This document shows positions 1 through 25,124 of a DNA stretch of 33,125 nt, in pieces. The first letter of the stretch is position 1. Every line of letters starts with the position of its first letter. Made by a program: the position numbers and the translations under genes. The notes below the pieces were generated by a model that was given only the letters and a program-made list of their open reading frames with translations, made no database searches and was not told where the DNA came from. This stretch comes from a virus. Its lineage: Duplodnaviria; Heunggongvirae; Uroviricota; Caudoviricetes. The stretch is taken from IMG/VR virus record IMGVR_UViG_2718218402_000003. The stretch is one strand, 5' to 3'.

Positions 1-234
1 ATGCCGGGTTACACAGAGTATGTCCTGGCTGAAGGATCTTTCTCATACGGGCAGGCGGTTGCTGTCATAACCGCTTACCGCAATGTGTTTATCCAGGATG
101 ACCCGGGAATGCATTTCCGTCGGGTTATCCGCAACGCGGAAGGTCAGCGACGCTGGCGCTGCCGGAATTCTGAACCCGATGCCGGAAAGGTGCTTAATAC
201 GCGGCTCGCCAGTGACGGTCTTCTCAGACAATAA
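1..234 (+). CDS. Possible 3' fragment of an upstream gene running into the window (partial, unidentified)
   Basis: Open frame from position 1 to a stop at 232-234; no recognisable family; could also be non-coding. Confidence 0.25.
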
Positions 235-333
235 ACGTCATTCATTTCACCCATCAGGCCGCGTCTTCTCCGGGAGACGTGGCTTTTTCATTTATTACAC
301 CAGTAAATCTTAACCACCGATAAGGAGCAAATT

Positions 334-1152
334 ATGCGACTAGCCAGTCGTTTTGGTTATGCGAACCAGATACGCCGTGACCGTCCGCTGACACACGAAG
401 AACTGATGCACTATGTGCCGGGGATTTTCGGGGAAGATAAACACACGTCCCGAAGCCAGAACTATACGTACATCCCCACCATCACCGTACTGGAAAGCCT
501 GCAGCGGGAAGGCTTTCAGCCATTCTTCGCCTGCCAGACCCGTGTGCGCGACCCGGGCCGCCGGGGATACACAAAACACATGCTGCGTCTGCGGCGGGCC
601 GGAGAGATAAACGGAGAACATGTCCCTGAAATTATTCTGCTCAACTCTCATGACGGTACCTCCAGCTACCAGATGCTGCCGGGTTACTTCAGGTTCGTCT
701 GCCAGAACGGATGCGTCTGTGGTCAGTCTCTGGGGGAAGTGCGTGTTCCGCACCGGGGAAATGTGGTGGACAGAGTCATTGAAGGGGCTTACGAGGTGGT
801 GGGGGTTTTTGACCGGATTGAGGAAAAGCGTGATGCCATGCAGTCGCTGATTCTGCCGCCACCGGCACGCCAGGCGCTGGCACAGGCGGCACTGACTTAC
901 CGTTATGGTGACGAACATCAGCCCGTCACCACCGCCGACATTCTGACGCCACGACGCCGGGAGGATTACGGTAAGGACCTGTGGAGTGCTTATCAGACCA
1001 TTCAGGAGAATATGCTGAAAGGCGGAATTTCAGGTCGCAGCGCTAAAGGAAAACGTATCCATACCCGTGCCATTCACAGCATTGACACTGACATTAAGCT
1101 CAACCGCGCATTGTGGGTGATGGCGGAAACGCTGCTGGAGAGCCTGCGCTGA
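334..1152 (+). CDS. DUF932-family protein (YafZ/YfjQ-like) of CP4-type islands
   Basis: 272-aa ORF; sequence and position (immediately upstream of antirestriction/RadC/CbeA/CbtA genes) match the conserved CP4-44/CP4-57/CP4-6 module as I recall it. Confidence 0.7.
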   Translation: MRLASRFGYANQIRRDRPLTHEELMHYVPGIFGEDKHTSRSQNYTYIPTITVLESLQREGFQPFFACQTRVRDPGRRGYTKHMLRLRRAGEINGEHVPEIILLNSHDGTSSYQMLPGYFRFVCQNGCVCGQSLGEVRVPHRGNVVDRVIEGAYEVVGVFDRIEEKRDAMQSLILPPPARQALAQAALTYRYGDEHQPVTTADILTPRRREDYGKDLWSAYQTIQENMLKGGISGRSAKGKRIHTRAIHSIDTDIKLNRALWVMAETLLESLR

Positions 1153-1206
1153 TTCAGCCATTACCCTGAAAACCACGCATTTATTTGTCCTTTAAGGAGT
1201 CATTTC

Positions 1207-1692
1207 ATGAAAACCATTTCACATAATTCCACCACATCTTCTGTTTCCGTAACCGCTGCATCAGGGAATGACCAGCCTCAGCTGGTTGCCACCATAGTCC
1301 CTGATGAACAGCGCATCAGCTTCTGGCCGCAGCATTTTGGCCTCATTCCACAGTGGGTGACCCTAGAGCCCCGTATCTTCGGCTGGATGGACCGTCTTTG
1401 CGAAGACTACTGCGGTGGTATCTGGAATCTGTACACACTGAACAACGGTGGCGCATTTATAGCGCCCGAACCGGATGACGATGATGGCGAAACATGGGTA
1501 CTGTTCAATGCCATGAACGGTAACCGCGCTGAAATGAGCCCGGAAGCCGCCGGCATTGCCGCCTGTCTGATGACGTACAGTCATCATGCCTGTCGTACGG
1601 AGTGTTATGCCATGACGGTCCATTATTACCGGTTGCGGGATTACGCCCTGCAGCATCCGGAATGCAGCGCCATTATGCGCATCATCGACTGA
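1207..1692 (+). CDS. Antirestriction protein, KlcA/ArdB-like (YfjX/YafX family)
   Basis: 161-aa ORF with acidic DDDDGE stretch; conserved position between DUF932 and RadC-like genes. Confidence 0.7.
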   Translation: MKTISHNSTTSSVSVTAASGNDQPQLVATIVPDEQRISFWPQHFGLIPQWVTLEPRIFGWMDRLCEDYCGGIWNLYTLNNGGAFIAPEPDDDDGETWVLFNAMNGNRAEMSPEAAGIAACLMTYSHHACRTECYAMTVHYYRLRDYALQHPECSAIMRIID

Positions 1693-1707
1693 ATGGAGAG
1701 AAGCACA

Positions 1708-2184
1708 ATGCAACAACTTTCCTTTCTGCCCGGAGAGATGACGCCCGGCGAGCGCAGTCTCATTCTGCGGGCCCTGAAAACCCTGGACCGCCATCTTCAT
1801 GAACCCGGCGTGGCCTTCACCTCCACCCGTGCGGCACGGGAATGGCTGATTCTGAACATGGCGGGACTGGAGCGTGAAGAATTCCGGGTGCTGTATCTGA
1901 ATAACCAGAATCAGTTGATTGCCGGTGAAACCCTCTTCACCGGCACCATCAACCGCACGGAAGTCCATCCCCGGGAAGTGATTAAACGCGCCCTGTACCA
2001 CAATGCCGCTGCCGTGGTGCTGGCGCACAATCACCCGTCCGGTGAAGTCACACCCAGCAAGGCAGACCGCCTTATCACGGAACGTCTGGTACAGGCACTG
2101 GGCCTGGTGGATATCCGGGTGCCGGACCATCTGATAGTCGGTGGCAACCAGGTTTTCTCCTTTGCCGAACATGGTCTGCTTTAA
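1708..2184 (+). CDS. RadC-like JAB/MPN domain protein (YeeS/YkfG/YfjY family)
   Basis: HNHPSG JAMM-type motif in translation; GGAGAG Shine-Dalgarno 7 nt upstream of ATG at 1708; the track ORF starts 15 nt earlier at 1693. Confidence 0.85.
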   Translation: MQQLSFLPGEMTPGERSLILRALKTLDRHLHEPGVAFTSTRAAREWLILNMAGLEREEFRVLYLNNQNQLIAGETLFTGTINRTEVHPREVIKRALYHNAAAVVLAHNHPSGEVTPSKADRLITERLVQALGLVDIRVPDHLIVGGNQVFSFAEHGLL

Positions 2185-2246
2185 CCCGTCACAACCACAT
2201 CACGCTTGTTTTCACTTTTATCTTCTGTCTTCAGAGGTATCACACT

Positions 2247-2468
2247 ATGAAAATCATCACCCGTGGTGAAGCCATGCGTATTCACCAACAACATCCGGCA
2301 TCCCGTCTTTTTCCTTTCTGTACCGGCAAATACCGCTGGCACGGCAGCACTGAAGCGTATACCGGTCGTGAAGTGCAGGATATTCCCGGTGTGCTGGCCG
2401 TGTTTGCTGAACGCCATAAGGACAGTTTTGGCCCGTATGTCCGGCTGATGAGCGTCACCCTGAACTGA
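2247..2468 (+). CDS. DUF987-family protein (YeeT-like)
   Basis: 73-aa ORF in the conserved position between RadC-like and antitoxin genes. Confidence 0.65.
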   Translation: MKIITRGEAMRIHQQHPASRLFPFCTGKYRWHGSTEAYTGREVQDIPGVLAVFAERHKDSFGPYVRLMSVTLN

Positions 2469-2630
2469 TGTTCCGTCACCCGGAAAACGAGTACGACCAG
2501 ATGGACTCAGACGCCGCTGTGGATGAGGCCATTCTCGTCAATGCATACATCTTCACCGAAACCGGTCAGCGCGCCGGCTGACCTGTCATCGTTAAACCAT
2601 TCTTAACCACTTTTCAGAGAGGATTTTATC

Positions 2631-2999
2631 GTGTCAGACAAACTCTCCGGGATAACTCATCCCGACGACAATCACGACCGCCCCTGGTGGGGGCTTCCCT
2701 GCACAGTGAGGCCCTGTTTCGGGGCACGTCTGGTGCAGGAGGGTAACCGCCTGCATTACCTTGCCGACCGCGCCGGTATCAGAGGCCTGTTCAGCGATGC
2801 AGATGCGTACCACCTGGACCAGGCCTTTCCGCTGCTGATGAAACAACTGGAACTCATGCTCACCAGCGGTGAACTGAATCCCCGCCATCAGCATACCGTC
2901 ACGCTGTATGCGAAAGGTCTGACCTGCAAAGCTGACACCCTCGGTAGCGGTGGTTACGTTTATCTGGCTGTTTATCCGACGCCCGAAACGAAAAAGTAA
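2631..2999 (+). CDS. cbeA: Type IV antitoxin CbeA (YeeU/YfjZ/YafW family)
   Basis: 122-aa translation near-identical to my recollection of E. coli YeeU ([11 protein letters not shown]...[11 protein letters not shown]); GTG start as given by the track. Confidence 0.85.
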
Positions 3000-3088
3000 A
3001 CCACCGGAATAACCTTCTGCTCCGGCCTGGTGCTTTCACCACGCCACTTTTCCATTTTTCATCTCTGCATATCAGGAAAACCTTCAGT

Positions 3089-3463
3089 ATGAAAACATTA
3101 CCCGATACACACGTACGGGAGGCATCGAGCTGCCCGTCTCCCGTCACCATCTGGCAGACTCTGCTCTCCCGACTACTGGGCCAGCATTACGGCCTTACAC
3201 TGAATGACACACCGTTCGCCGATGAACGTGTGATTGAGCAGCATATTGAAGCTGGCATTTCACTGTGTGATGCGGTGAATTTTCTCGTGGAAAAATACGC
3301 GCTGGTGCGTACCGACCAGCCGGGATTCAGCACTTGTCCCCGCTCTCAGTTAATAAACAGTATTGATATCCTCCGGGCTCGCCGGGCGACCGGCCTGATG
3401 ACCCGCGACAATTACAGAACGGTAAATAACATTACCCTGGGTAAGCATCCGGAGAAACGATGA
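3089..3463 (+). CDS. cbtA: Type IV toxin CbtA (YeeV/YpjF/YkfI family, cytoskeleton-inhibiting)
   Basis: 124-aa ORF immediately downstream of cbeA; recognised family. Confidence 0.85.
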
Positions 3464-3948
3464 AACTTTCCCTGATGCTGGAAGCCAACAGAATTAATGT
3501 GCAGGCACTGAACATGGGGCGAATTGTCGTTGACGTCGATGGTGTTAATCTCACTGAACTGATTAACAAGGTCGCTGAAAACGGTTATTCACTCCGCGTG
3601 GTGGAGGAATCCGACCAACAGTCAACCTGCACACTACCACCGTTTGCAACCCTTGCCGGCATACGCTGCAGTACCGCACATATCACGGAAAAGGATAACG
3701 CCTGGCTGTACTCGCTGTCACACCAGACCAGTGACTTCGGTGAATCAGAATGGATTCATTTCACAGGTAGCGGATATCTGTTACGTACCGATGCGTGGTC
3801 ATATCCGGTTCTGCGGCTTAAACGCCTGGGGCTGTCAAAAACGTTCCGTCGTCTGGTTATCACACTTACCCGACGTTATGGCGTCAGTCTCATTCATCTG
3901 GATGCCAGCGCTGAATGCCTGCCGGGTTTACCCACTTTCAACTGGTAA
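3460..3948 (+). CDS. YeeW-like protein
   Basis: 162-aa ORF overlapping the cbtA stop by 4 nt; conserved position downstream of cbtA. Confidence 0.55.
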
Positions 3949-3959
3949 CCAGGAACAAC

Positions 3960-4157
3960 ATGAAATCATTAACCACGGAAACCGCACTGGATATTCTGAT
4001 TGCGTGGCTGCAGGACAATATCGACTGCGAATCGGGAATTATCTTTGACAACAATGAGGATAAAACGGATTCAGCAGCACTGTTGCCCTGTATCGAACAG
4101 GCCAGAGAGGATATCCGTACCCTGCGCCAACTGCAGCTTCAGCACCAGAACCGGTGA
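3960..4157 (+). CDS. Small hypothetical protein (65 aa)
   Basis: ATG at 3960 (MKSLTTETALDIL...) inside the track ORF 3915-4157; followed by a terminator-like hairpin. Confidence 0.4.
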   Translation: MKSLTTETALDILIAWLQDNIDCESGIIFDNNEDKTDSAALLPCIEQAREDIRTLRQLQLQHQNR

Positions 4158-4199
4158 GTCTCACTCATCATCTCACTCACCAGACTTCATTCCACTGAC

Positions 4200-4230
4200 G
4201 CCAGCCTGAACACGGCTGGCGTTTTCATTT
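4200..4230 (+). terminator. Rho-independent terminator-like hairpin
   Basis: GCCAGCC-tgaacac-GGCTGGC stem-loop followed by GTTTTCATTT. Confidence 0.5.
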
Positions 4231-4253
4231 ATCTGCAAAAAGGAATATCGATT

Positions 4254-4823
4254 ATGTCTGAAATCACAGTCTCCCGTCCGGAAGTGGTCAACGAGAATAC
4301 GGACGTTATCTGCTCCACCTCAGTCAGGTACAGGTCACTGGAATATGATAATTTTCCGGAAATCAGCGAAGCGAACATTCTGAGCACATTTGAACAACTG
4401 CACCAGAACAAAGATGAAGTGTTTGAACGGGGAGTGATCAACGTCTTCAAAGGGCTGAGCTGGGATTACAAAACCAACTCACCCTGTAAATTTGGCAGTA
4501 AAATTATCGTCAACAATCTGGTGAGATGGGACCAGTGGGGATTTCATCTTATCAGTGGAATGCAGGCAGATCGCCTGGCTGACCTGGAAAGAATGTTGCA
4601 TCTGCTCAGCGGTAAACCGATCCCCGACAACCGAGGGAATATCACCATTAATCTGGATGACCACATACAGTCCGTTCAGGGTAAAGGACGCTATGAAGAT
4701 GAGATGTTCATCATTAAATACTTTAAGAAGGGATCTGCACACATCACTTTCAAAAGGCTGGAGCTGATTGACAGAATTAACGATATAATAGCCAGGCACT
4801 TTCCTTCTGTGCTCTCAGCCTGA
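4254..4823 (+). CDS. Hypothetical protein (189 aa)
   Basis: Clean ORF with AGGAATA RBS-like sequence upstream; no family recognised with confidence. Confidence 0.5.
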   Translation: MSEITVSRPEVVNENTDVICSTSVRYRSLEYDNFPEISEANILSTFEQLHQNKDEVFERGVINVFKGLSWDYKTNSPCKFGSKIIVNNLVRWDQWGFHLISGMQADRLADLERMLHLLSGKPIPDNRGNITINLDDHIQSVQGKGRYEDEMFIIKYFKKGSAHITFKRLELIDRINDIIARHFPSVLSA

Positions 4824-4885
4824 CCCCGAGTTTGATTCCCTTTCGATATCAAAAGGGACTGCGGGTACAAAAGAGGGTACATATT

Positions 4886-5125
4886 TCACCAAACCAAACA
4901 AAATAAACTAATATCAACATGATAGAAGCATTCTTCGATTCCGAGTCCGGCACCAAACCCTGCAGCCATTACAGTGAGGTGTGTTGTTTCGCCATTTGGA
5001 TATTCACGCATGATGGTGTTAACTCCGGTCATCACTGGCACTACCATTGCTGGTTCAGAGTTAAAAAAAACTATTATTTTTTTCATAATGTTACCGTAAT
5101 ATGTGAGTATCCATCGACTAGACAC
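4886..5125 (-). CDS. Doubtful small ORF in the AT-rich island/prophage junction
   Basis: 79-aa frame overlapped by an equally plausible plus-strand ORF (4919-5128); neither recognised. Confidence 0.15.
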   Translation of the reverse strand: MSSRWILTYYGNIMKKIIVFFNSEPAMVVPVMTGVNTIMREYPNGETTHLTVMAAGFGAGLGIEECFYHVDISLFCLVW

Positions 5126-5127
5126 TA

Positions 5128-5150
5128 AGCAAAAAAGCTCCCGAAGGAGC
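5128..5150 (-). terminator. Rho-independent terminator (minus-strand sense)
   Basis: GCTCC-CGAA-GGAGC hairpin at 5137-5150 followed on the minus strand by TTTTTT (plus-strand A-run 5131-5136); lies about 200 nt downstream of cspI. Confidence 0.45.
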
Positions 5151-5357
5151 CTTCATTTTCACTTTCTTAAATCTAACGACAGATGGCTAACATTTAAGTA
5201 TTGTGAAATATTATCAAATGTAATCATCATTGATTTACAAAAGATACATTTTGCCCCGAAAGGATTTCTGTCAGAAACATCAAAAGATGATGTTCTATAC
5301 TGAGAACCATGGCAACACGGGCATCTAAAGTGAATATGGTTTGTAATATTTTCTACC

Positions 5358-5570
5358 TCAAAGTGCCACTACATGAACAGCTGCAGGGCCTTTAGGTCCG
5401 TTCTCAATACCAAATTCGACTTCCTGATTCTCAGTTAACGTTTTGAAATCGTTGCTCTGAATAGCTGAGAAATGCACAAACACATCTTTGCTACCATCTT
5501 TCGGCGTGATGAAACCAAAACCTTTTTCAGGGTTAAACCATTTCACTAAACCAGTCATTTTGTTAGACAT
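5358..5570 (-). CDS. cspI: Cold-shock protein, CspA family (Qin prophage CspI-like)
   Basis: 70-aa [21 protein letters not shown]...; RNP1-like KGFGFI motif; long AT-rich 5' leader upstream. Confidence 0.85.
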
Positions 5571-5933
5571 CATTATTACCTTTTGAAGAAGTTAGCCCTT
5601 GGGCAGAATGGTCCGAAAAAAAATATCAGAGAGAAAAACCAACAAGGAAATCTCAAGAGGTACAAATAATAAAATTATAACAATGACTGCTTCAGATAAT
5701 TTTGTAACAAACCAGAACACCATTAACGCATGATTAACCAACCATAGCAAGGATTACTTTTGTAAAGAAAAACACACGAATGAAACAATAGCTTTATTTA
5801 TTAATAAAACGTGTCATTCTGTCTAATGACCTTTTATCTTACCCCTAAGATTTCAAGGATTTTGACTCATGGAAGAGTCCTTTTTATTTAAATTTCACAT
5901 TCAGCGCTAAAAATAATCCGATTTAATATTAAT

Positions 5934-6957
<1,024 letters not shown>

Positions 6958-6961
<4 letters not shown>

Positions 6962-7269
6962 AGATATTTATGATGAGGACGCTCGTGCTTATTGGCAGGA
7001 TTTTCAATCTTAAAGGAGTACTGATGCTGCAGATAAGACTCAACTTTTTCTGACAATTTTTCTGCTACTTCCAGGAAGACTTGCCGGACGCTCATTCTGG
7101 CTGCTGCCTCATAAAACTCCAGCGCAGCTCCTTCAACACGGTCCATGGCGACATCCAGGCCAAAAATTTCACCGTCAAAGCGTTCTTTGTCCTGTAAGGC
7201 TACAGTTACCGTAACTTTATTCTCAAAATTACGGACTCCTTTCACAACCAGTTCATAGTCTTGAGTCAT
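6958..7269 (-). CDS. ydfR: DUF1327-family protein (YdfR-like)
   Basis: 103-aa ORF between holin and lysozyme, as in Qin. Confidence 0.6.
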
Positions 7270-7273
7270 TGGA

Positions 7274-7489
7274 TTACTCTCCTCTCGCAGCCTTACGCCT
7301 GTCTTCTTTAATCTTGAAATAAAGATTTGTCAGATACGTCAGCATGCCAAATACCAGACTACCCAATACACCTATTGCCGCCCACTGTGAGGGCGTGACT
7401 TTATCGAGCAACTGTAAAAACCAGTAGCCAGCACTGCCTGCAGAGGTGCTGTAGGCGATGCCCGTTGTTAACTTATCCATGGATTTCAT
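7274..7489 (-). CDS. essQ: Class II holin (EssQ/EssD-like)
   Basis: 71 aa from ATG at 7489 ([13 protein letters not shown]...) preceded by GGAGGTGA Shine-Dalgarno; the track ORF is extended upstream. Confidence 0.8.
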
Positions 7490-7679
7490 AGCCTCACCTC
7501 CGCAGATAACGGATGGTGTACACGGTTTGGTTCGAAGAAGGAAAGAAGTTACATTAGCGTAAGGCCCGAACATCTATTCAAAAAGAAAAACGCCAGCAAT
7601 TATTCTGGCGTAGCTAAAAATATCGTATAATCTTACACTTCAAAAAATAACTTTATAAAATGCCATCACATCATATCTT

Positions 7680-8402
7680 CTAAGAAAATCTTGATAAATA
7701 TTGGTGCGGAGGCACACCAAAATATCCTCTAAAAACACTTACAAAATATGATGCATTGTCATACCCGCATATTCCCGCCACCTTGCCGACAGTATGGTTA
7801 CTGTAGATCAATAATCTTTGCGCCATCATCATTCGTTCTTCAAGAATTAATTTACTAAACGATAATCCTTCGTCTTTTAATTTTCTTTTTAACAAACTCT
7901 CGCTCATATATAATCTTGAAGATATATCACAAAGTCTCCATGACGCTGAGATATCCGAGTGAATAATAGCCTTAACTTTACAACCTAAGCTATTAAGACT
8001 TCCGAACAAAAAACTTTGCACCATTTTCTCTGAAGATAAGACAGCAAGACATGCAAGTGATATTTGATTGCTAACTACATCCACGGTTTTGCTATCACAA
8101 TTCAAGCATGCAACCAAGTTCTTTAACAATGAAAAATCTTCACATTCTACTATCAAGTATGACGGATAAAACCTTCTTACAGAAAAAGGTGAGAGTGTGT
8201 AGTTTTTAAAGAAATCATTAACTGTTTTCTCCTCAACATCTACGATCATTAGATGATCTGTATTTGACGAAAAAAGATCTTTTAAATTGTATTCAATGAG
8301 GACAGCATTTCCTTTTTTAAACAAAATATCTTCTTTACCAATTCGGACACCAAACGAGTTCAACACCAAAATGATAGAACATATGTATGGCATATTATCC
8401 AC
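7680..8402 (-). CDS. AraC-family transcriptional regulator (AppY/EnvY/PerA-like)
   Basis: 240 aa with C-terminal AraC-type HTH region; gene is markedly AT-rich relative to flanks. Confidence 0.75.
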   Translation of the reverse strand: MDNMPYICSIILVLNSFGVRIGKEDILFKKGNAVLIEYNLKDLFSSNTDHLMIVDVEEKTVNDFFKNYTLSPFSVRRFYPSYLIVECEDFSLLKNLVACLNCDSKTVDVVSNQISLACLAVLSSEKMVQSFLFGSLNSLGCKVKAIIHSDISASWRLCDISSRLYMSESLLKRKLKDEGLSFSKLILEERMMMAQRLLIYSNHTVGKVAGICGYDNASYFVSVFRGYFGVPPHQYLSRFS

Positions 8403-8799
8403 CTGATATCATTGGGGTTACACCAGGTAAGTATAGGTGGAAAATCAATATTCGCCAGTTCAACAATAAGGAAAATCTCATTGCATCACAACTATAAAAC
8501 CATGTGTTTAACTCACAAAAAACAAATCATTAAACTAATCTGTTATATTATAATAGCTGCGTGCAATAATAATATTATATGCTCTTAATATTCACTTGAA
8601 ATATCTTCATATAAAAACAGATTGAATAAAATCTTTTGGGGCTGGTATGTTTACCAACATTAAATTGCATCTCAATGTTTTCTTTAGCGTGAACAGGATT
8701 TTTATAAAAACTGACACTATGAGCATCATAGCGTAGTTTTTACGATTGTAAATATCCTGCATACAGGAACTCATCACTTTCAGATGATATCGCATACAG

Positions 8800-9759
8800 T
8801 TAATTCACCATCAGTCTTAGAGCCAGTTCTTCCGGATAGGGATCGAAGTAATTCTGTGTAAGCAAGTAATCATTAGGATACTCACCCAGATAATGCTTCA
8901 GCAGAGTCAACGGCGCAAGAAGAGGCAATGTGCCAAAGCGATAGTTAAGTATAACCTCGCTCAACTCTTTACGCTGGCGTGTACTTAAGTAATTACTAAA
9001 ATACCCCTGTATATGCATCAGCACATTCGTGTGATTTTTACGTGATGCTGGTTTTCTGAGAATCGCCATCAGATTATCACGATACACCTCAAAGTATGAT
9101 TCAAGGTCCGCCCACTCGTGTATTGCAGCCACAAATGGTCCCATATCTTTATAGCCTGCCTGGCTATGCGCCAACAACTGAAGCTTATAACGACTATGAA
9201 AAGCTAATAACTCTCTTCTTGATAATTTCTCCTTGTAAAGGTGATTGAGCTCATGCAAAGCAAAAACTCTTTCAATAAAATTCTCACGAAGCACTGGATC
9301 ATGTAATCGCCCATCCTCTTCAACCGGTAGCCAGGAAAACTTTTCCATCAAAGTGCTCGTAAATAGTCCCACTCCATCTTTACGACCTCGATTACCATTT
9401 TCATCATAGACACGCACGCGCTCCATGCCACAGCTGGGAGATTTAGCACAAACCACAAACCCCGATACATCCTTTAATTTGTCCATATAAGAACGACTAA
9501 ACTCTGTCATTCTCTCTGTCACATCCTCATTCTGGTCGTGGCTGAAACACATCCGTATATTTCCTTGCTTCGAGCGCACAAGTCGTAGAGCAGGACGCGG
9601 AACTGGCAGCCCTATAGCCATTTCCGGACATACTGGTCTGAATGTTACCCATTCCACTAATTTGTCCATTAAAAAGTCATCTCTTTTGTGACCACCATCA
9701 AAACGAACAGCAGAACCGCCCAAACAACCGCTGATCCCAATCACAGGTTTTTTTATCAT
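8800..9759 (-). CDS. Fused DUF523/DUF1722 protein (YbgA-like; DUF523 domain resembles thiouracil desulfurase family)
   Basis: 319 aa; N-terminal GISGCLGG...RFDGGH motif; GGAGGA Shine-Dalgarno upstream of ATG. Confidence 0.6.
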   Translation of the reverse strand: MIKKPVIGISGCLGGSAVRFDGGHKRDDFLMDKLVEWVTFRPVCPEMAIGLPVPRPALRLVRSKQGNIRMCFSHDQNEDVTERMTEFSRSYMDKLKDVSGFVVCAKSPSCGMERVRVYDENGNRGRKDGVGLFTSTLMEKFSWLPVEEDGRLHDPVLRENFIERVFALHELNHLYKEKLSRRELLAFHSRYKLQLLAHSQAGYKDMGPFVAAIHEWADLESYFEVYRDNLMAILRKPASRKNHTNVLMHIQGYFSNYLSTRQRKELSEVILNYRFGTLPLLAPLTLLKHYLGEYPNDYLLTQNYFDPYPEELALRLMVN

Positions 9760-10160
9760 TTCCTCCCCCTTGACTAATTCATTAACACATAAACTTTGTA
9801 GTGCACGGACTAAATTGCCTTTCTGGCTTCATCACTGACAATTTTTCTGTTATTGACTATTCCTAATATAGTAGGAAAGTTCTTTAAGTGATCGGTCGTA
9901 CTCATCTATCTTTCATACTTACTCTCAACTATCAAAAGTACAGGATTTATTATGAAGTTATGGCCTGTGTTGACTGGCATTGCACTCTCTTTCACTCTTA
10001 TAGCATGTAAGGCCCCGACACCACCTAAAGGTGTGCAGCCGATTACAAATTTTGACGCCAACCGCTACCTCGGAAAATGGTATGAAATAGCTCGCTGATC
10101 TTACCCAGCAATAGTGGACACGCGGCTAAGTGAGTAAACTCTCAGTCAGAGGTGACTCAC

Positions 10161-10460
10161 ATGACAAAAACAGTATCAACCAGTAAAAAACCCCGTAAAC
10201 AGCATTCGCCTGAATTTCGCAGTGAAGCCCTGAAGCTTGCTGAACGCATCGGTGTTACTGCCGCAGCCCGTGAACTCAGCCTGTATGAATCACAGCTCTA
10301 CAACTGGCGCAGTAAACAGCAAAATCAGCAGACGTCTTCTGAACGTGAACTGGAGATGTCTACCGAGATTGCACGTCTCAAACGCCAGCTGGCAGAACGG
10401 GATGAAGAGCTGGCTATCCTCCAAAAGGCCGCGACATACTTCGCGAAGCGCCTGAAATGA
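10161..10460 (+). CDS. insE: IS3 OrfA (InsE-like)
   Basis: 99 aa from ATG 10161; HTH plus leucine-zipper-like region. Confidence 0.85.
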
Positions 10461-11323
10461 AGTATGTCTTTATTGAAAAACATCAGGCTGAGTTCAGCAT
10501 CAAAGCAATGTGCCGCGTGCTCCGGGTGGCCCGCAGCGGCTGGTATACGTGGTGTCAGCGGCGGACAAGGATAAGCACGCGTCAGCAGTTCCGCCAACAC
10601 TGCGACAGCGTTGTCCTCGCGGCTTTTACCCGGTCAAAACAGCGTTACGGTGCCCCACGCCTGACGGATGAACTGCGTGCTCAGGGTTACCCCTTTAACG
10701 TAAAAACCGTGGCGGCAAGCCTGCGCCGTCAGGGACTGAGGGCAAAGGCCTCCCGGAAGTTCAGCCCGGTCAGCTACCGCGCACACGGCCTGCCTGTGTC
10801 AGAAAATCTGTTGGAGCAGGATTTTTACGCCAGTGGCCCGAACCAGAAGTGGGCAGGAGACATCACGTACTTACGTACAGATGAAGGCTGGCTGTATCTG
10901 GCAGTGGTCATTGACCTGTGGTCACGTGCCGTTATTGGCTGGTCAATGTCGCCACGCATGACGGCGCAACTGGCCTGCGATGCCCTGCAGATGGCGCTGT
11001 GGCGGCGTAAGAGGCCCCGGAACGTTATCGTTCACACGGACCGTGGAGGCCAGTACTGTTCAGCAGATTATCAGGCGCAACTGAAGCGACATAATCTGCG
11101 TGGAAGTATGAGCGCAAAAGGTTGCTGCTACGATAATGCCTGCGTGGAAAGCTTCTTTCATTCGCTGAAAGTGGAATGTATCCATGGAGAACACTTTATC
11201 AGCCGGGAAATAATGCGGGCAACGGTGTTTAATTATATCGAATGTGATTACAATCGGTGGCGGCGGCACAGTTGGTGTGGCGGCCTCAGTCCGGAACAAT
11301 TTGAAAACCAGAACCTCGCTTAG
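10457..11323 (+). CDS. insF: IS3 OrfB transposase (InsF-like, DDE catalytic domain)
   Basis: 288 aa in the -1 frame relative to orfA with TGA/ATG overlap; matches IS3 InsF as I recall it. Confidence 0.9.
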
Positions 11324-11765
11324 GCCTGTGTCCATATTACGTGGGTAGGATCACGCCTCGAGAACTGGTTCGAACGTGGTCTGGAACAGGTCAGCGCTAC
11401 TTATGAAAAACGGAACGACGGAGGGATTCGCGTACTTAACCGTGGATACGATCCAACGAAAAACAAATGGAGCGAGAGCGAAGGTAAAGCATACTTTACT
11501 GGAGATACTAAAACTGCAGCGTTGAAAGTTTCGTTTTTTGGCCCCTTCTATGGTGGCTATAATGTAATCAAACTGGATGATGAGTATAAGTATGCTCTTG
11601 TCAGTGGTCCGAACAGAGAATACCTATGGATTCTGGCAAGGACCCAAACTATTCCAGATAATGTAAAAGCAGACTATGTGCGTACCGCTCAAAAGTTGGG
11701 ATTCAATGTCAATGAACTATTATGGGTTAAACAATAAAATCCCCACCCGAAATGATACTTATTAG

Positions 11766-11792
11766 AAAAAAACCAGCCTTTGGGGAGGCTGG
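11766..11792 (-). terminator. Terminator-like hairpin between blc 3' end and Q gene (probably bidirectional)
   Basis: A-run, then CCAGCCT-ttgggg-AGGCTGG; a T-run follows on the minus strand. Confidence 0.45.
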
Positions 11793-11892
11793 CTAAATCA
11801 GGAAACAAGCTGTTATATGATAATAACTACGTTGCGATTCCAACATTTAAAATGTTAGACTAATGAAAATCAGACAGCAACTTTTCCTTTAA

Positions 11893-12270
11893 TTATTTCG
11901 AACAATCAGCATCCATCTCCAATCGGAGATCCAACACCATCAGCATGCCCTCCACTACGCCCTCAGCTTTCTGGAGCATCCTGCCAACCCAACAATCAGA
12001 TCGCCCATGCTTACGTGCAAGCGCCATAAAAGTCATGCCGCCGACATAATAGTTCACCAATAAATCATGTAAATCGCTGTTGTTTTTTTTCAGGCGAGCC
12101 ATACATTCACAAATGATCATCGCGTCATCGTCACAGCATTGCGGACGAGATCTTACTTTTGAAGGAATTAATCCCTTAAAACCGGCGGCAATGGACGACC
12201 AGGTCACATCTTCATGATTATTAGCCGCCCATGCCCCCCAACGCTCAAGAACCATCTGAATATCACGCAT
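11893..12270 (-). CDS. quuQ: Late-gene antiterminator Q (QuuD/QuuQ, phage-82 Q family)
   Basis: From [26 protein letters not shown]..., matching DLP12/Qin Q proteins as recalled; sits upstream of the lysis/cargo region. Confidence 0.8.
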
Positions 12271-12287
12271 CAACTTACTCCACAAAA

Positions 12288-13337
12288 TTAGGCCAGCACA
12301 CCAATTGCCAGCGCGCGATCGATAAATCGAAAAATCAGCTCCAGTTGGGAGCCATACTTCTCTTCAAATGCCACGGTATCCGTATGCAACTCGTCGTGAT
12401 GCTTTCTGCACAAAGGCAAAACAAAGAGATCATGTGCTTTGGTTCCCATTCCGCCCTGCCCGTGACTAATCAGATGATGCGGATCGTCGGCTGGCATACC
12501 GCAGCAAGCACACGGCTGTGTCTTAACCCAGCGTGTGTATTTCTCCTTAACCCACCGGTGACGTTTAGGCAGCTTCATGAAAGATTCCGGAGACTCTGGA
12601 TCAACGGTGATGCTTACCACCGTCTTTTCCTGTGATGGGTTTTGTTGCTGGTGGGCGTGAGGCAACGGTGCAAGATTTTTTGTGCACTGTTTCAATATGC
12701 TGGTGGCGGTCTGCTCTCCCGGTACGATGTCGCTTTCGCGGTACACCGAGCAGATTTTTTCCGCTGGTAATCCCAGCGAGCGACGTAATACCGCTTCCGG
12801 TAGCGCGTCCGCCAGCTGATTGCGGACCGCCCACCAGGATAATTCAGCCAGAGATAATTCACGCTCCTGCGTACCGCTTATTGCGTGACCGATGACGTCA
12901 ATCATCCATGCTGACAGGTTTTGATGAGCAAGTTGCTCGAGTGATTCGGATGTCTGGTCACGCAGCTGGTTGTCGCAGTGCCAGCACAACACCATTGCGC
13001 CGGTACCATATCGGTGAATAACGGTTTCGCTGTGATGATAATCGCCGTGTGGCCACTGGCAGGATTTAATATGGCGCAACAGCCAGTCAGACAATGCACC
13101 AGCACCACCAGCAGCACGAATTACCCGTGCGTTACTGAAAAACGGCAGCAATGTTTTGTCTTCCACCAGCGGCTGGCGAACGGCAGGAACGACCCCGGAC
13201 GGCAGATTACGCATGCTTTTCGGTTCCGGCTCCACCAGTACCCGGGTATTGTGGAATACCGGCATGGATTCACGGCCCGGCTTAACGACCACCAGCCCGA
13301 GTTCCGGTACCAGAACAGGTCGAAGTAATACCCGCAC
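12288..13337 (-). CDS. ydfU: DUF968-family protein (YdfU-like)
   Basis: 349-aa ORF directly upstream of Q, as in Qin; start codon not verified. Confidence 0.6.
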
Positions 13338-13338
13338 G

Positions 13339-13728
13339 TTACCTCCAGAGGCGTTGCTGGAATGTACGGGACGGACGCGGTGGGCGTTCGGAGTAAGGCA
13401 ATCTGACTGAGATTATCCAGTGACGGTAGTCGAGGCTAAGGGCTTTTTTAACCTCGTATCCGCGCCTGCGGTAACACTGAATTATCCATTCAGCCTGCTC
13501 TTCAGTGCATGGTGGATGCTGGAACCAGTCCGATTTGAATGCATGAAAACGCCGTCCGCACCTGCTGGCAAAGACGGCAGAATCATCAGAATTGTGTAAT
13601 TTGGTATCGTGCGCCATCGGTTGTCTCTGCTGGCGCAGCAGGTGCCAGTTGTTCAGGCTGGCGTATAAAGTATAAATAAACTGGTTCCAGTGTAAAGCCC
13701 CTACATTAATGGAATAAAAGTCAAACAA
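13339..13728 (-). CDS. Hypothetical phage protein (Cys/His-containing)
   Basis: 129-aa ORF tightly coupled to ydfU; true start may be the internal Met. Confidence 0.35.
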   Translation of the reverse strand: MFDFYSINVGALHWNQFIYTLYASLNNWHLLRQQRQPMAHDTKLHNSDDSAVFASRCGRRFHAFKSDWFQHPPCTEEQAEWIIQCYRRRGYEVKKALSLDYRHWIISVRLPYSERPPRPSRTFQQRLWR

Positions 13729-13980
13729 CAGATTGTTGGGATAAACACAACGCTTATTATTAAAAGCGATTAGATAAATTAAATTTTAATGTTATGCAAT
13801 TTTACCAGATCACCATAACATCTCGTTTGAAACCACCAAAACAACAACCATATCAATATTGATTATGTTAAAGTGAGTAAATATGGAAAACAACAAATCT
13901 GCACATTACGCTCCTTTTTTATCTGTGATACTTTTTGTTTTATGCTGTGTGTGGGCATTATTTTTATAAAAATATTTACA

Positions 13981-14007
13981 GATAAAATAAACCCGCCGAA
14001 GCGGGTT
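13981..14007 (-). terminator. Hairpin downstream of hokD (terminator / 3' fold-back element)
   Basis: AACCCGC-CGAA-GCGGGTT followed on the minus strand by a T-rich run; a second hairpin GCGAGGGA-tttct-CCCTCGC lies at about 14049-14069. Confidence 0.5.
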
Positions 14008-14075
14008 AAGTGCGGGTGCATTGAGGATGCCTGACACATCAGAGGTGGCGAGGGATTTCTCCCTCGCCTGGTCTC

Positions 14076-14231
14076 TTACTCCTCAGGTTCGTAAGCTGTG
14101 AAGACAGCGACCTCCGTCTGGCCGGTTCGGATTCGTACCTCGCAGAGGTCTTTCCTCGTTACCAGTGCCGTCACTATGACGGTTAAACAGATGACGATCA
14201 GGGCGATTAACATCGCCTTTTGCTGCTTCAT
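14076..14231 (-). CDS. hokD: Hok/Gef-family type I toxin (HokD/RelF-like)
   Basis: 51 aa MKQQKAMLIALIVICLTVIVTALVTRKDLCEVRIRTGQTEVAVFTAYEPEE; AAGGAGAAG Shine-Dalgarno before ATG 14231; the track ORF extends upstream in frame. Confidence 0.85.
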   Translation of the reverse strand: MKQQKAMLIALIVICLTVIVTALVTRKDLCEVRIRTGQTEVAVFTAYEPEE

Positions 14232-14906
14232 AGCCTGCTTCTCCTTGCCTTTCGGCACGTAAGAGGCTAACCTAGATTTGCCGTTCATAGATTGAGCCTC
14301 AGATTAATGTTAAGCGTCTTGCAGGACGCGTAATGTTAACTGGGGCTTTTCTCTATCTGCCGTTGGTGTTCATGCCTGAGACAGATAGCCTCAAGCACCC
14401 GCAGCCATTCTACTTAACTCCCGTCACCTCGCCAATATGAAATCAGTCAGAAAGGCGATCCATAAGAACAACAGCAAGGCAATAAATTGCCATTACAGCA
14501 GCAATAGCCAGCGCACATTTGAGAACCAGCACCACAACCTCCTGTATTGGACGTACACCAGTCCTGATAAATATGAGGCTGTCTCGTCAGTGATTCAATA
14601 CAACTATTGGGTATAGTTTCTGTGATTTTGTTCTGTAGAAATGGAACACAACAACCAGTCACCACCAGCACTTCTTTAAATACGCCAAGTCCGACGCAAG
14701 CTAACCTTCTAGGCCGCTTTGAGCGAAGAGCGGACGCTCGCATCTGTCCCAACACACTGAGGGCTTCACGAACACCTAGGTGTACTCGTCAACTGGGAAA
14801 AAGTCAGATTATCTGTAAGCGTACAGCCTGAACCGTCTGGTCAGAATCTGACGAATTAGACAAAGTGGTGTCCACCAAATAAGTAGTGGGAACCAAAGTA
14901 TCAGAT

Positions 14907-15287
14907 ATGCAGAAAAATGTGACTCCCGGCAGGCGAAAAGGCTGCCCTAATTATCCTCCCGAATTTAAACAGCAGCTCGTTGCTGCCTCCTGTGAACCCG
15001 GGATATCCATCTCAAAACTTGCTCTTGAAAATGGCATTAACGCCAATCTGTTGTTCAAATGGCGACAACAATGGCGCGAGGGAAAGCTGCTATTACCTTC
15101 TTCAGAGAGCCCCCAGCTACTTCCTGTGACTCTCGATGCAGCTGCCGAACAGCCAGAATCGCTCGCAGAGGACCCGGAAACCCTCAGTATCAGCTGTGAG
15201 GTAACGTTCCGGCACGGGACGCTCCGCTTCAATGGCAATGTCAGCGAAAAGCTCCTGACTCTGCTGATACAGGAACTGAAGCGATGA
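14907..15287 (+). CDS. IS66-family TnpA (orf1)
   Basis: ATG at 14907 (MQKNVTPGRRKG...); the track start at 14886 is a GTG. Confidence 0.8.
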   Translation: MQKNVTPGRRKGCPNYPPEFKQQLVAASCEPGISISKLALENGINANLLFKWRQQWREGKLLLPSSESPQLLPVTLDAAAEQPESLAEDPETLSISCEVTFRHGTLRFNGNVSEKLLTLLIQELKR

Positions 15288-15631
15288 TCCCGTTACCTTC
15301 CGGGACCAAAATTTGGCTGGTTGCCGGTATCACCGATATGAGAAATGGCTTCAACGGCCTGGCTGCGAAAGTACAAACGGCGCTGAAAGACGATCCCATG
15401 TCCGGCCATGTTTTCATTTTCCGGGGCCGCAGCGGCAGTCAGGTTAAACTGCTGTGGTCCACCGGTGACGGACTGTGCCTCCTGACCAAACGGCTGGAGC
15501 GTGGGCGCTTCGCCTGGCCGTCAGCCCGTGATGGCAAAGTGTTCCTTACGCAGGCGCAGCTGGCGATGCTGCTGGAAGGTATCGACTGGCGACAGCCTAA
15601 GCGGCTGCTGACCTCCCTGACCATGCTGTAA
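15284..15631 (+). CDS. IS66-family TnpB (orf2)
   Basis: 115 aa, overlapping tnpA stop; characteristic IS66 orf2. Confidence 0.85.
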
Positions 15632-15680
15632 ATCTCTTTATCCTGGTTGTCACAGAATAAGCCCGGTAAAATACGGGCTT

Positions 15681-17219
15681 ATGAACGACATCTCTTCTGA
15701 CGACATCTTCCTGCTGAAACAGCGCCTGGCCGAACAGGAAGCGCTGATCCACGCCCTGCAGGAAAAGCTGAGCAACCGGGAGCGCGAAATAGACCATCTG
15801 CAGGCGCAGCTGGATAAACTCCGCCGGATGAACTTCGGCAGTCGTTCCGAAAAAGTCTCCCGCCGTATCGCACAAATGGAAGCCGATCTGAACCGGCTTC
15901 AGAAAGAGAGCGATACGCTGACTGGTAGGGTGTATGACCCGGCAGTACAGCGTCCGTTGCGTCAGACCCGCACCCGTAAGCCGTTCCCTGAATCACTACC
16001 CCGTGACGAAAAGCGACTGTTGCCTGCGGCGCCGTGCTGCCCGAACTGCGGCGGTTCACTGAGCTATCTGGGCGAGGATACCGCCGAACAGCTGGAGTTG
16101 ATGCGTAGCGCCTTCCGGGTTATCCGGACGGTACGGGAAAAACATGCCTGTACTCAGTGCGATGCCATCGTGCAGGCACCTGCACCTTCGCGGCCCATCG
16201 AGCGGAGTATCGCCGGACCGGGGCTGCTGGCCCGCGTGCTGACCTCGAAGTATGCAGAGCACACCCCGCTGTATCGCCAGTCAGAAATATACGGCCGGCA
16301 AGGTGTGGAGCTGAGGCGTTCACTGCTGTCGGGCTGGGTGGATGCATGCTGCCGGCTGCTGTCTCCGCTGGAAGAGGCGCTTCATGGCTATGTCATGACT
16401 GACGGCAAACTCCATGCCGATGATACCCCGGTCCAGGTACTGCTGCCGGGTAATAAGAAGACGAAGACCGGGCGGTTGTGGGCGTATGTTCGTGATGACC
16501 GCAATGCAGGGTCAGCGTTGGCACCTGCAGTGTGGTTCGCTTACAGCCCGGACAGAAAAGGCATCCATCCGCAGACTCATCTTGCCTGCTTCAGCGGTGT
16601 GCTGCAAGCGGATGCGTACGCCGGGTTCAACGAGCTGTATCGCAATGGTGGGATAACGGAAGCTGCCTGCTGGGCTCATGCCCGCCGAAAGATCCACGAT
16701 GTGCACGTCCGCATCCCGTCAGCACTGACGGAAGAAGCCCTGGAGCAGATCGGTCAGTTGTACGCCATAGAGGCGGATATAAGGGGAATGCCGGCAGAGC
16801 AGCGGCTTGCTGAACGTCAGCGAAAAACGAAACCGTTGTTGAAATCCCTGGAAAGCTGGTTGCGTGAAAAGATGAAGACCCTGTCGCGACACTCAGAGTT
16901 GGCGAAGGCGTTCGCGTACGCACTTAACCAGTGGCCGGCACTGACGTACTATGCGAACGATGGCTGGGTGGAAATCGACAACAACATCGCTGAAAATGCC
17001 CTGCGGGCGGTCAGTCTGGGTCGTAAAAACTTCCTGTTCTTCGGCTCTGACCATGGTGGTGAGCGGGGAGCGCTACTGTACAGCCTGATCGGGACGTGCA
17101 AACTGAATGACGTGGATCCAGAAAGCTACCTTCGCCATGTGCTTGGCGTCATAGCAGACTGGCCGGTCAACCGGGTCAGCGAACTGCTTCCGTGGCGCAT
17201 AGCACTGCCAGCTGAATAA
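15681..17219 (+). CDS. IS66-family transposase TnpC
   Basis: 512 aa with N-terminal leucine zipper, CxxC...CxxC zinc finger and DDE region. Confidence 0.9.
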
Positions 17220-17280
17220 CACATCCCCGTCAATACGGCCCTCGCTGTACGCTTACGATTATCTGCGTAAGTTTCAGCGT

Positions 17281-17329: not shown

Positions 17330-20300
17330 CTATGTATCTGAGCCAAACATAGAGCGCCGCCTTGTTATTTTATAATAAGTGGGATTTTCATTATCCACCT
17401 CAAAATCAGAGAAGAAGTGGTTATCTCTTAATGCTGTTAATAAACTTTGATTAGTTGAATCAACTTCAATTTTAGGTTTGCCTCGCCCCAAAATTTTACT
17501 GAACTCCGATAAACCAAGCAGATCAAGATACTCTTTGCAAGTCGTCTTACTCAAATCCTTACCCGGCAACAAAGCGATTAGCAGTGCTATTTTATTCTGC
17601 ATATTCAGTCCCTCTGCGACAAACAGGTTTTTTAGTAACGGTTCAGAAACATCATTAGGACTTGCTATCAATGCTGATATATCCTGTATTGCTCGACTCA
17701 AGATGAGCGACTGAGTAGAGGTTCCCCAAGTTTTATAAGATGACGTCAAGATTAGAAGTTCATCTGGTTTAAAATTATTTTCTAAAATATAGTCATTAAC
17801 GACCTGAGAGTAATTCTTACTATAAATAGCCAACGGAGTTTTAACAAACTCGAGTAGCTTAACTTTCAAATCATCATCAACTTTCCAAGAAAGTATTGAT
17901 ATAGCCTCATCCAAAATAAAGTTATCAATCGTCATTAATTCAACGTATGCCCTGATATTCTTATGAATATAATAGGAAAGTTGCTCTGAATAGTTATCTC
18001 GTATGAAATTAAGTGGCGCAACATTCATACGAATAATATTTTTATCCACTAATATTTTGAACTTATCACTCGCGATATTACTAGCGCTAAAGGATGTTTT
18101 ACAAATAATATTTAGTGAGCAAATTAATTTTTCATATTTATCATTTGATAAATCATTACAGATAACAATCGATTTAAATAATTTACCTTTAAGCTCGTTA
18201 TCAATATTAATATTTTGAAAATTCAGGTCTACATCAGTTCTATTGATAAATTCGATAAGTGAGTCATCCAGTCCATCAACATGTTCAAAATAAGAGACAA
18301 TATTTTCCTCAGAGCACACTGCTCTATCTTTATCCAACAAAGATGACCATAAAGATTCGCTCTCAACCTCACTCAGAGATGTCACGAAAGTTTGCAAAGC
18401 GTTTATATACTGGCCTTTTTGTTCATCAGATATTCCCTCATTATTAAGAACGGATAAAACAATGGATTCATCATCCACGATTGAACCATCACAACTAGAT
18501 AAAACCATATCCAGATAGTCCCTAATATGGTTATTAACATAACTAGCCAAGGGAGAATCAGGTTGTGACATCACTAGTGTATAGTTCTTATGGCGAATAT
18601 CATCTTCACTATTAAGCGTGTAAACCTTACTCAGCATTAAGGTCAGGTTGGAAAAATTAATATCATAAAGTGAATGCTGGTAAACCGCATCAAAGAGTAC
18701 TTTATTTGCGTTTTCAAATTTAATACTGACAAAAGAAACGTTAAGCAACTTAAAACCACTAATTAATTTGTCAACCTTCGGTTCTGATATTGCTAAATAA
18801 CCTGCCGAATCAGAGATGTAATCAGTCAGACAATCATCAATATTAATGGCCTCGATGGCGTCATTGGCAGAATAATAAAACGTGCCTATAGAGTAGAGTT
18901 TAACCCAATCAGCAGAAAATTCACTCTCTGTCAGCGCATAAGAAAAAAACTCAGGCCACTGTGTATTTAATCGATTAATGAAGACAGGCTGAGCCCTCTC
19001 AGTTTCAAAGTAACCACGAATAAACTCAACTCTTCTATCTTTTCTTAGTTGTTTGAATAAACGTTTTATTAAGTTTACCTGGGCTGGCGTTTGAAGCAGA
19101 TAAGCTAATAAATCAAAATTAAGCGCCTCTTCCTGTTCAAAATCCACTTCTCGAAGGCGGGCAACGACCAGCTTGGGGTTCTTGAGTTGATAAGTGAACT
19201 CTTTGCCTTTTTGATCGGTAATGCTGCGTAAAAACATCTTATCAATTCGACTCAGGCTATTTTCATAAAAATAGGTCATATAGTCGGTATAGGTTTCATC
19301 AATATAACCATCACGAATAAGGTATTTAAGCAAGTCAAAATACTCACTGCTTTTTATTTCATTAAAGTCTCTTTCCTCTCCAATTTCATTGGTATAGGTG
19401 AGTTTAAATATTTCATCAATGTTTTCTCTAGTTATTACTTCTTTAAGTCTTTTGTTTCTAGAATCAACCAAACTTTCTCTTGATCTTGATATAAGCTCAT
19501 TAATTTCTTCTATTTTACCATTAAATTTATTTTCAACACTTTCTTTTCTAGCCGCCCTTCTCTTTGCTATATCAGCTTTCTCAGCCTGATTATAGTGAGG
19601 ATGATTATTATATCTAGATAATTCCTTATCGTATATAGCATCAACCTCCTGACTAGAGTTGAGTATTTCATCATTGATTGCCTCAATCTCTTTTTTTCTA
19701 TCTCTAATATCTTTTTCTATTTTCTTTATTTCTTCAATAATAAGGTTGTCTTTTTCACTAAATATGGTATAAACCATACCTTGATTAAGTTGCAACTCAC
19801 TAAAATCTCTTGGGAAAATATTCTTATAGGCAATAATGGCCAACATTTTATTACAGTCAAGTTCTGTCGTGTTTAATTTGTTATAATAAATTTGAAATTC
19901 GTTATAAATATTCTTCAATATTCTCATATCATCAATATATAAAGACATCCCTTGTAGAAATCTTTCATTGAACAACTTGAGAATACCACCACCATCAAAA
20001 TGTGTGATAAACTGATCGTAAGAGTTAGAACTATCAACAACAGGAATAACTGGAATGATATAATCAAAGAATTTGGTTCTATCCTTCGAAATGAAGATAT
20101 CATCACGAAGCAAGTAAATAAAACGTAACGTCGATTTCTTGTGCCCTGCTGTGTCCCGTTGAATATTAACCAGTCTGTTAACCTCATGAAGACGTTCAAA
20201 GATGTTATTACTATTAAAACGGTCCATGTCTTCAAAAACAATGGCATCAGCATCAACGTTCTCGAAAAGGTACAATACTTCATTTAAATATCTATCGAAA

Positions 20301-25061: not shown

Positions 25062-25124
25062 TTTCTGGTGACGTTTGGCGGTATCAGTTTTACTCCGTGA
25101 CTGCTCTGCCGCCCTTTTTAAAGT
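25062..25124 (+). ncRNA. dicF: DicF small regulatory RNA (ftsZ-targeting) with intrinsic terminator
   Basis: TTTCTGGTGACGTTTGGCGGTATCAGTTTTACTCCGTGACTGCTCTGCCGCCC followed by TTTTT; matches DicF as recalled; between ydfC and dicB. Confidence 0.8.

Follow-up and report, generated by a model that had tools for sequence, protein, structure and literature searches.

The distal arm of a tRNA-Phe-associated CP4-type island, carrying a CbeA/CbtA pair, adjoins part of a Qin-like prophage in a single assembly

We analyzed a 33,125-nucleotide (nt) stretch of DNA (IMG/VR virus record IMGVR_UViG_2718218402_000003; here called the window) in which a run of island genes that includes a CbeA/CbtA (YeeU/YeeV) type IV toxin-antitoxin pair lies next to a lambdoid prophage. 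Positions 1 to 4955 are very probably the distal (attR-proximal) arm of an integrative island that is P4-like, associated with tRNA-Phe, and of the CP4-44/CP4-57/CP4-6 family; the arm was most likely joined to the prophage by a recent illegitimate rearrangement. The arm is an ordinary, already known island tail, its CbeA/CbtA pair is likewise known, and neither is a new kind of system. The juxtaposition with the prophage is not a common arrangement: it is known from one assembly only and bears no sign of function.

To place the arm, we used BLASTP to compare the proteins of the window with those of three cryptic elements of Escherichia coli K-12, CP4-44, CP4-57, and CP4-6. K-12 YeeS, YeeT, CbeA, CbtA, and YeeW were 99, 96, 92, 88, and 69% identical to their counterparts (for YeeW, the N terminus was compared with a 64-residue stub), and the CP4-57 and CP4-6 paralogues gave identities of 60 to 82%. 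An initial annotation, made from the letters alone, had recognized here the tail module of these three elements, and the gene content, order, and spacing do agree with those in K-12. With CP4-44 (yeeS-yeeT-cbeA-cbtA-yeeW), the window has in common the gene order, the strand, a cbeA-cbtA gap of ~89 nt (89 nt here and 88 nt in K-12), and a 4-nt overlap between cbtA and the yeeW gene (DUF5983). The two differ in that yeeW encodes a full-length DUF5983 protein of 162 residues in the window but the 64-residue stub in K-12. Upstream, the window has a DUF905 gene, a DUF932 gene, and an antirestriction gene, whereas in K-12 CP4-44 yeeR abuts yeeS; downstream, the window arm goes on with a DUF957 gene, a DUF4942 gene, and a repeat of tRNA-Phe sequence, none of which is annotated in K-12 CP4-44, where yoeD and yoeF come after yeeW. 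In CP4-57 (yfjQ...yfjX-yfjY-ypjJ-yfjZ-ypjF) and CP4-6 (yafZ...ykfF-yafX-ykfG-ykfH-yafW-ykfI), the families follow one another as they do in the window, namely, DUF932, (DUF905), antirestriction, RadC, DUF987, antitoxin, and toxin, although both K-12 elements, unlike the window, have extra genes between the DUF932 and antirestriction genes. The attachment sites also differ: CP4-6 starts within thrW, whereas the window carries tRNA-Phe sequence. CP4-57 is associated with ssrA.

The right end of the arm is marked by a 22-nt direct repeat. Alignment with K-12 pheV and pheU showed that it corresponds to the final 23 nt of tRNA-Phe (T-loop through CCA) but lacks one G. Displaced tRNA fragments of this kind mark the ends of islands (Islander paper, PMC4383910). 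Whereas the initial annotation let the arm run to 4823 and then into the prophage, the repeat at 4934 to 4955 places the end of the island at 4955. The same repeat was found at the same distance behind the DUF4942 gene in 12 other loci, where what follows is never the flank seen in the window (but pheU and its terminator, pheV and its terminator, or a third flank), and in these loci the sequences diverge directly after CACCA.

Furthermore, the arm is very widespread. Megablast of positions 1 to 5400 against 5,426 complete E. coli genomes detected it in 5,211 of them, at a median of three places per genome, and 3,396 had a copy that spanned 80% or more of the query. In the 25 genomes listed, the arm was 99.7 to 100% identical and each match ended at 4956 or 4957; the loci compared had one or two differences across the 4.96 kb of arm. 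The CP4-like island that precedes the locus of enterocyte effacement (LEE) at pheU or pheV in atypical enteropathogenic E. coli (19KM2326N, ML35, and ECO2947) is the same element, with 99.8 to 100% identity over 4,956 to 4,957 nt, including the terminal repeat. What comes after the repeat differs, being the pheU terminator and the LEE in 19KM2326N and ML35, another flank followed by effector genes and the LEE in ECO2947, and prophage DNA in the window. In near-identical relatives, the side of the island that would lie left of the window has genes for YfjI, a GTPase, Ag43, a YeeR-like protein, and IrmA upstream of the arm, in line with the content that the initial annotation had anticipated there. 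The closest complete relative, 19KM2326N (NZ_CP151038.1, 1 to 20 kb), has many frameshifted genes (fec operon, DUF932, YfjI, speG, and rnpA), and single-base indels between it and the window are therefore possibly errors in the 19KM2326N assembly.

The arm comprises ten tightly spaced plus-strand genes between positions 1 and 4823 (coding density, 86%; gaps, -4 to 162 nt), nine of which were assigned to Pfam families with scores far above the gathering threshold (Table 1). All of the open reading frames (ORFs) named in the initial annotation are present, on the plus strand and at the coordinates given there, but the extent and content of the arm needed correction. It does not start at 334, since the DUF905 gene carries it to at least base 1, and its last two ORFs, which had been called unassigned, are both conserved arm genes (DUF957 by RefSeq and DUF4942 by Pfam at 2e-54). 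The product of 3960-4157 had no match in the copies of Pfam, NCBIfam, and PADLOC that were scanned. Among all ten arm proteins, NCBIfam gave nothing useful except RadC; the PADLOC scan of the eight arm proteins other than CbeA and CbtA gave no matches; and no solved structural relative was found for CbtA or the DUF4942 protein. The RadC-like ORF is open from 1693, and its start at 1708 was taken from RefSeq. The exact DUF4942 protein is indexed in 7,229 blocks of an assembly collection, and the contigs that were read had pheU, pheV, or tandem-island flanks. The ArdB/KlcA-type antirestriction protein, the DUF932 protein, and the RadC-like JAB protein would probably aid survival of the element on its entry into a new host, and the arm could thus act as an establishment and maintenance module.

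The assignment of 2631-2999 and 3089-3463 to the CbeA and CbtA families, on which the initial annotation had staked its reading, is clear (Pfam, 1.9e-52 and 9.6e-62; 92 and 88% identity to the K-12 proteins). cbeA lies directly upstream of cbtA on the same strand, and in a sequence comparison the predicted CbeA protein matches the solved YeeU structure (PDB 2H28) at 1e-75. In type IV pairs of this kind, the toxin stops growth and alters cell shape, and the antitoxin rescues the cells without complex formation between the two proteins. The pair would constitute an addiction or stress module in which CbtA, which binds FtsZ and MreB, arrests cell division and elongation and is counteracted by CbeA, as has been shown for the K-12 proteins; from the 88 to 92% identity, the intact reading frames, the conserved spacing, and the retention of Phe65, we infer a K-12-like role for the pair in the window. 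Phe65, which the CbtA protein of the window retains, is required for FtsZ binding in all three K-12 toxins (Heller et al., PMC5624674). Position 15, on the other hand, is Cys in the window and Arg in the CbtA protein of CP4-44, and an R15C substitution in the latter abolishes the MreB two-hybrid signal and turns the lemon-shaped cells into filaments (PMC5624674). The CP4-57 and CP4-6 toxins, YpjF and YkfI, naturally have Cys15, like the CbtA protein of the window, and still block elongation (PMC5624674). Because they do so, Arg15 does not define the family, and the CbtA protein of the window may or may not target MreB.

The two mobile elements are indeed juxtaposed in the given sequence, as the initial annotation had it, and they meet at 4955-4957. 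The microhomology at this joint amounts to three bases (AAA), or to two if the parent had the flank of 19KM2326N, which reads AAT after the repeat, and there is no insertion sequence (IS), attachment (att) sequence, or terminator at the joint. Exact look-ups of the chimeric ORF that spans it gave no match, but a homology search showed that this ORF is identical to WP_149025796.1, a one-member cluster from a single 5,060,525-bp contig. Megablast of positions 4600 to 5700 found the joint in none of the 5,426 complete E. coli genomes and in no PLSDB plasmid or INPHARED phage record, and the exact junction strings were absent from GTDB representative genomes and JGI metagenomes. Look-ups of lineage-specific neighboring genes likewise led to nothing but customary surroundings, namely, pheU/cadC, pheV/kps, tandem islands, and intact prophages.

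The source of the window is near-clonal with 19KM2326N, from which it differs by one indel in the 4.96-kb arm and by three differences in 9.86 kb of prophage. In 19KM2326N, the arm reaches its end at 23.7 kb, with the pheU terminator and the LEE behind it, and the prophage lies at 2.87 to 2.89 Mb in the opposite orientation; arm and prophage are 2.87 Mb apart. Because the two elements lie separate in a near-clonal relative, the joint must be either a recent illegitimate rearrangement or an assembly error.

We favor the rearrangement. The native pheU flank, which in the closest relatives has the LEE behind it, would have been replaced straight after the repeat by the interior of ynfN of a Qin-like prophage. 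This most likely occurred through a single recent illegitimate (microhomology-mediated) event in one lineage, within a more complex rearrangement, and it would be a structural accident with no designed function. Several points weigh against our reading of island and joint. The joint rests on a single assembly, the left end of the island, with its integrase and tRNA gene, lies outside the window, and the CbtA protein, having Cys15, may be limited to FtsZ in its activity. Nor would a random illegitimate break be expected to land within 3 nt of the canonical end of an island. A simple inversion from the layout of 19KM2326N is unlikely, as it would carry oriC along (dnaA, at 510 kb, falls between the two breakpoints, 23.7 kb and 2.89 Mb), and on the K-12 map such an inversion would give replichores of ~0.5 and 4.4 Mb, an imbalance that is improbable in a naturally occurring isolate. 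It would also leave the reciprocal joint ...GGTCAGAGATGG followed by (A)ATTTCATATCAACGG....

Three further routes to the joint were considered and rejected. A recombination hot spot in ynfN does not fit with the fact that other truncated YnfN variants break at other residues. Excision of the LEE would not have exposed a prophage flank, given that the far flank of the LEE in 19KM2326N is yjdJ/dcuS. A route in which two IS3 copies recombined and a precise excision then left a 3-bp scar is unlikely, as it demands two rare steps and the closest relative has AAT rather than AAA after the repeat; in this genome, IS3 duplications are indeed 3 bp long.

The main rival to a rearrangement is that the joint arose in assembly or finishing, most of all through long-read misassembly, and that arm and prophage are not neighbors on the chromosome. 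We regard such an artefact as a possibility to be taken seriously, albeit one that we doubt. Both the joint and the fused ORF are known from one assembly only, the island side halts where the multicopy arm sequences diverge, which is a typical place for a contig to end, and the topology implied by comparison with the near-clonal 19KM2326N is biologically awkward. The prophage side, in contrast, breaks in DNA that is single copy in nearly all genomes (a median of one place per genome), an unusual end for a contig, and a graph assembler could not have been misled by k-mer overlap, as the two sides have just 2 to 3 nt in common. In addition, four multicopy IS elements are fully resolved in unique context within the window, which points to a long-read assembly rather than to joined short contigs.

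Since the break lies within 3 nt of the canonical island end on one side and in arbitrary single-copy phage DNA on the other, it could also record an unrecognized end-specific reaction at the displaced tRNA fragment, such as an aberrant integrase- or nuclease-initiated break repaired through microhomology. We consider this improbable. Slightly less probable still is that the island's integrase inserted the element into the prophage, with a secondary attachment site inside ynfN as the target, in the manner of satellites in the late genes of their helpers. Islands embedded in prophage late genes have been described (PMC10111431), the break coincides with the canonical end of the island, and no chromosome-scale rearrangement would be needed. 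In those helper-embedded satellites, as in the window, an integrative island lies against prophage late-region DNA, but there a phage gene is the target of the integrase and the att repeats consist of phage sequence (PMC10111431), whereas the terminal repeat in the window is a tRNA-Phe fragment, and the island was therefore not integrated into ynfN by the normal reaction. In the main group of integrases directed at tRNA-Phe genes, most members have an attB that starts at the T-loop (bioRxiv 10.1101/2020.11.02.365908); a crossover at the T-loop would leave bases of the target to its right, but the window keeps tRNA-derived bases as far as CCA, and the corresponding ynfN bases, compared by eye, agree at only 6 of 21 positions. 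Nor does a second copy of the ynfN segment flank the element within the window. That the ten arm genes are cargo (morons) of the lambdoid prophage itself can be dismissed almost entirely: the arm adjoins prophage DNA with no host gene between, but it is found, at up to 100% identity, at pheU or pheV or beside the LEE in thousands of genomes, with no prophage among the contexts inspected, it terminates in the tRNA-Phe repeat, its G+C content is 52% against 40% in the adjoining prophage DNA, and intact relatives of the prophage have gnsB and packaging genes at this position.

The prophage is defective and Qin-like and is broken off inside ynfN. The initial annotation had the arm run directly into a lambdoid prophage, and this is borne out as to type, the gene content being Qin-like, but the entry point is inside ynfN and the part present extends only from ynfN to int. 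The lysis cassette, Q antiterminator, replication and immunity region, and int/xis are in lambdoid order, with the late, lysis, and replication genes on the minus strand and exo, xis, and int on the plus strand. From the joint onward, the order is ymcF, cspI with a thermoregulator RNA, Rz, lysozyme, DUF1327, a P21-type holin, an AraC-type regulator, a DUF523/DUF1722 gene, Q, DUF968, hokD/sok, a 1210-residue YobI-like NTPase, replication genes, DicF, exonuclease, xis, and int. Qin of K-12 and the intact rspB-site relatives have the same set and order (int, xis, exo, the dicB/DicF region, replication genes, hokD/sok, ydfU, Q, holin, ydfR, lysozyme, Rz, cspI, ymcF, and ynfN). Unlike them, the prophage in the window is cut after YnfN codon 45, has four IS insertions in 28 kb, and is accompanied in the window by no gnsB, terminase, packaging, head, or tail genes; in intact relatives, ynfN is followed by gnsB, Nu1/terminase, portal, head, and tail genes, a place taken in the window by the island arm. 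Positions 4955 to 14815 are 99.97% identical to 19KM2326N, and int matches the int of the rspB-site prophage in this strain at 100% identity. The immunity region at 21.9 to 24.8 kb differs from that of the 19KM2326N prophage and is the only long non-IS stretch without a strong match to it (one 296-nt piece, 94%).

Several other features of the prophage were noted. At 17330-20962, on the minus strand, an intact gene encodes the YobI-like P-loop NTPase, which scored 8e-123 in Pfam and, over its N-terminal 440 residues, 1e-66 against the PADLOC model Tmn. The gene lies in DNA of 33% G+C between hokD/sok and the replication genes, is split into two ORFs in 19KM2326N, where one base is missing (17724), and looks like a prophage-borne defense gene. 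The AraC-type regulator gene (7680-8393, minus strand) and the DUF523/DUF1722 gene (8800-9759, minus strand; 2-thiouracil-desulfurase-like), with 34 to 40% G+C, lie between Q and the holin gene and are a moron-like cargo pair; AraC-type proteins of exactly this sequence are uncommon and are indexed in 130 blocks of the collection of assemblies. Three RNAs scored above the Rfam gathering score, namely, a cspA-type thermoregulator upstream of cspI (5312-5728, minus strand), the sok antitoxin RNA of the hokD locus (14226-14400, minus strand), and DicF RNA (25063-25114, plus strand). Within the replisome-organizer gene, four to five 12-nt tandem units (TCTCTGTAGTAA/TCTCTGTTGTAT) at 22289-22348 resemble origin iterons.

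Table 1. Coordinates of the island arm, the joint, and the prophage features in the window
Feature	Coordinates	Strand	Evidence or remarks
DUF905 gene (YkfF-like), first arm gene within the window	1-234	+	Pfam DUF905, 9.5e-18; 46% identity to K-12 YkfF; DUF905 family protein in relatives
DUF932 gene (YfjQ/YafZ-like)	334-1152	+	Pfam, 7.4e-52; 75% identity to YfjQ and YafZ
Antirestriction protein gene (YfjX/LfgA and YafX family)	1207-1692	+	Pfam Antirestrict, 3.9e-36; 67-69% identity to LfgA/YafX
RadC-like JAB-domain gene (YeeS orthologue)	1708-2184	+	Pfam RadC, 8.4e-45; 99% identity to K-12 YeeS
DUF987 gene (YeeT orthologue)	2247-2468	+	Pfam, 3.1e-38; 96% identity to YeeT
cbeA (yeeU) antitoxin gene	2631-2999	+	Pfam CbeA_antitoxin (PF06154), 1.9e-52; 92% identity to K-12 CbeA
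cbtA (yeeV) toxin gene, intact, 124 residues	3089-3463	+	Pfam CbtA_toxin (PF06755), 9.6e-62, full profile; 88% identity to K-12 CbtA
DUF5983 gene, full-length YeeW homologue (162 residues)	3460-3948	+	Pfam DUF5983_N, 8e-28, and DUF5983, 1.4e-21; N terminus 69% identical to the 64-residue K-12 YeeW stub
Small conserved arm gene, DUF957 protein in RefSeq	3960-4157	+	WP_000839281.1 in every relative opened
DUF4942 gene, last island gene	4254-4823	+	Pfam DUF4942, 2.1e-54
Chimeric ORF, 66 residues	4886-5086	-	YnfN residues 1-45, then 21 residues from island DNA across the tRNA-Phe repeat
22-nt direct repeat TTCGATTCCGAGTCCGGCACCA, displaced tRNA fragment, right end (attR core)	4934-4955	+	Alignment to K-12 pheV and pheU
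Novel joint, AAA common to the island/pheU side and ynfN	4955-4957		Island homology to 4957, prophage homology from 4955
Part of Qin-like lambdoid prophage, ynfN interior to int	4958-33125	-	99.97-100% identity to rspB-site prophage of 19KM2326N; Pfam and Rfam content
IS3-family copy, common to 19KM2326N	~10.1-11.35 kb (~10100-11350)		
Complete IS66-family element	14816-17256		8-bp duplication GATTATCT
IS3-family element with ALIL pseudoknot, splits exonuclease gene	27063-28372		Duplication TAC
IS66-family copy, internally deleted, between xis and int	29852-31787		Duplication GACCAAGA

The finding itself adds little, as the arm and its CbeA/CbtA pair are among the commonest accessory modules of E. 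coli and the joint is the sole unusual feature. If the joint is real, it is a very recent rearrangement in a strain of a LEE-bearing lineage that removed the native pheU flank and the Qin-like late genes, at least at this locus, and its significance would lie chiefly in the structure of that single genome and in its quality control. Were an end-specific reaction at the tRNA fragment responsible, such a reaction could graft an arm with toxin-antitoxin and antirestriction genes onto a prophage and give rise to island-prophage hybrids. For those who work on the toxin family, the window offers a CbtA protein that is 88% identical to the K-12 protein and naturally bears the Cys15 substitution that abolishes the MreB interaction there.

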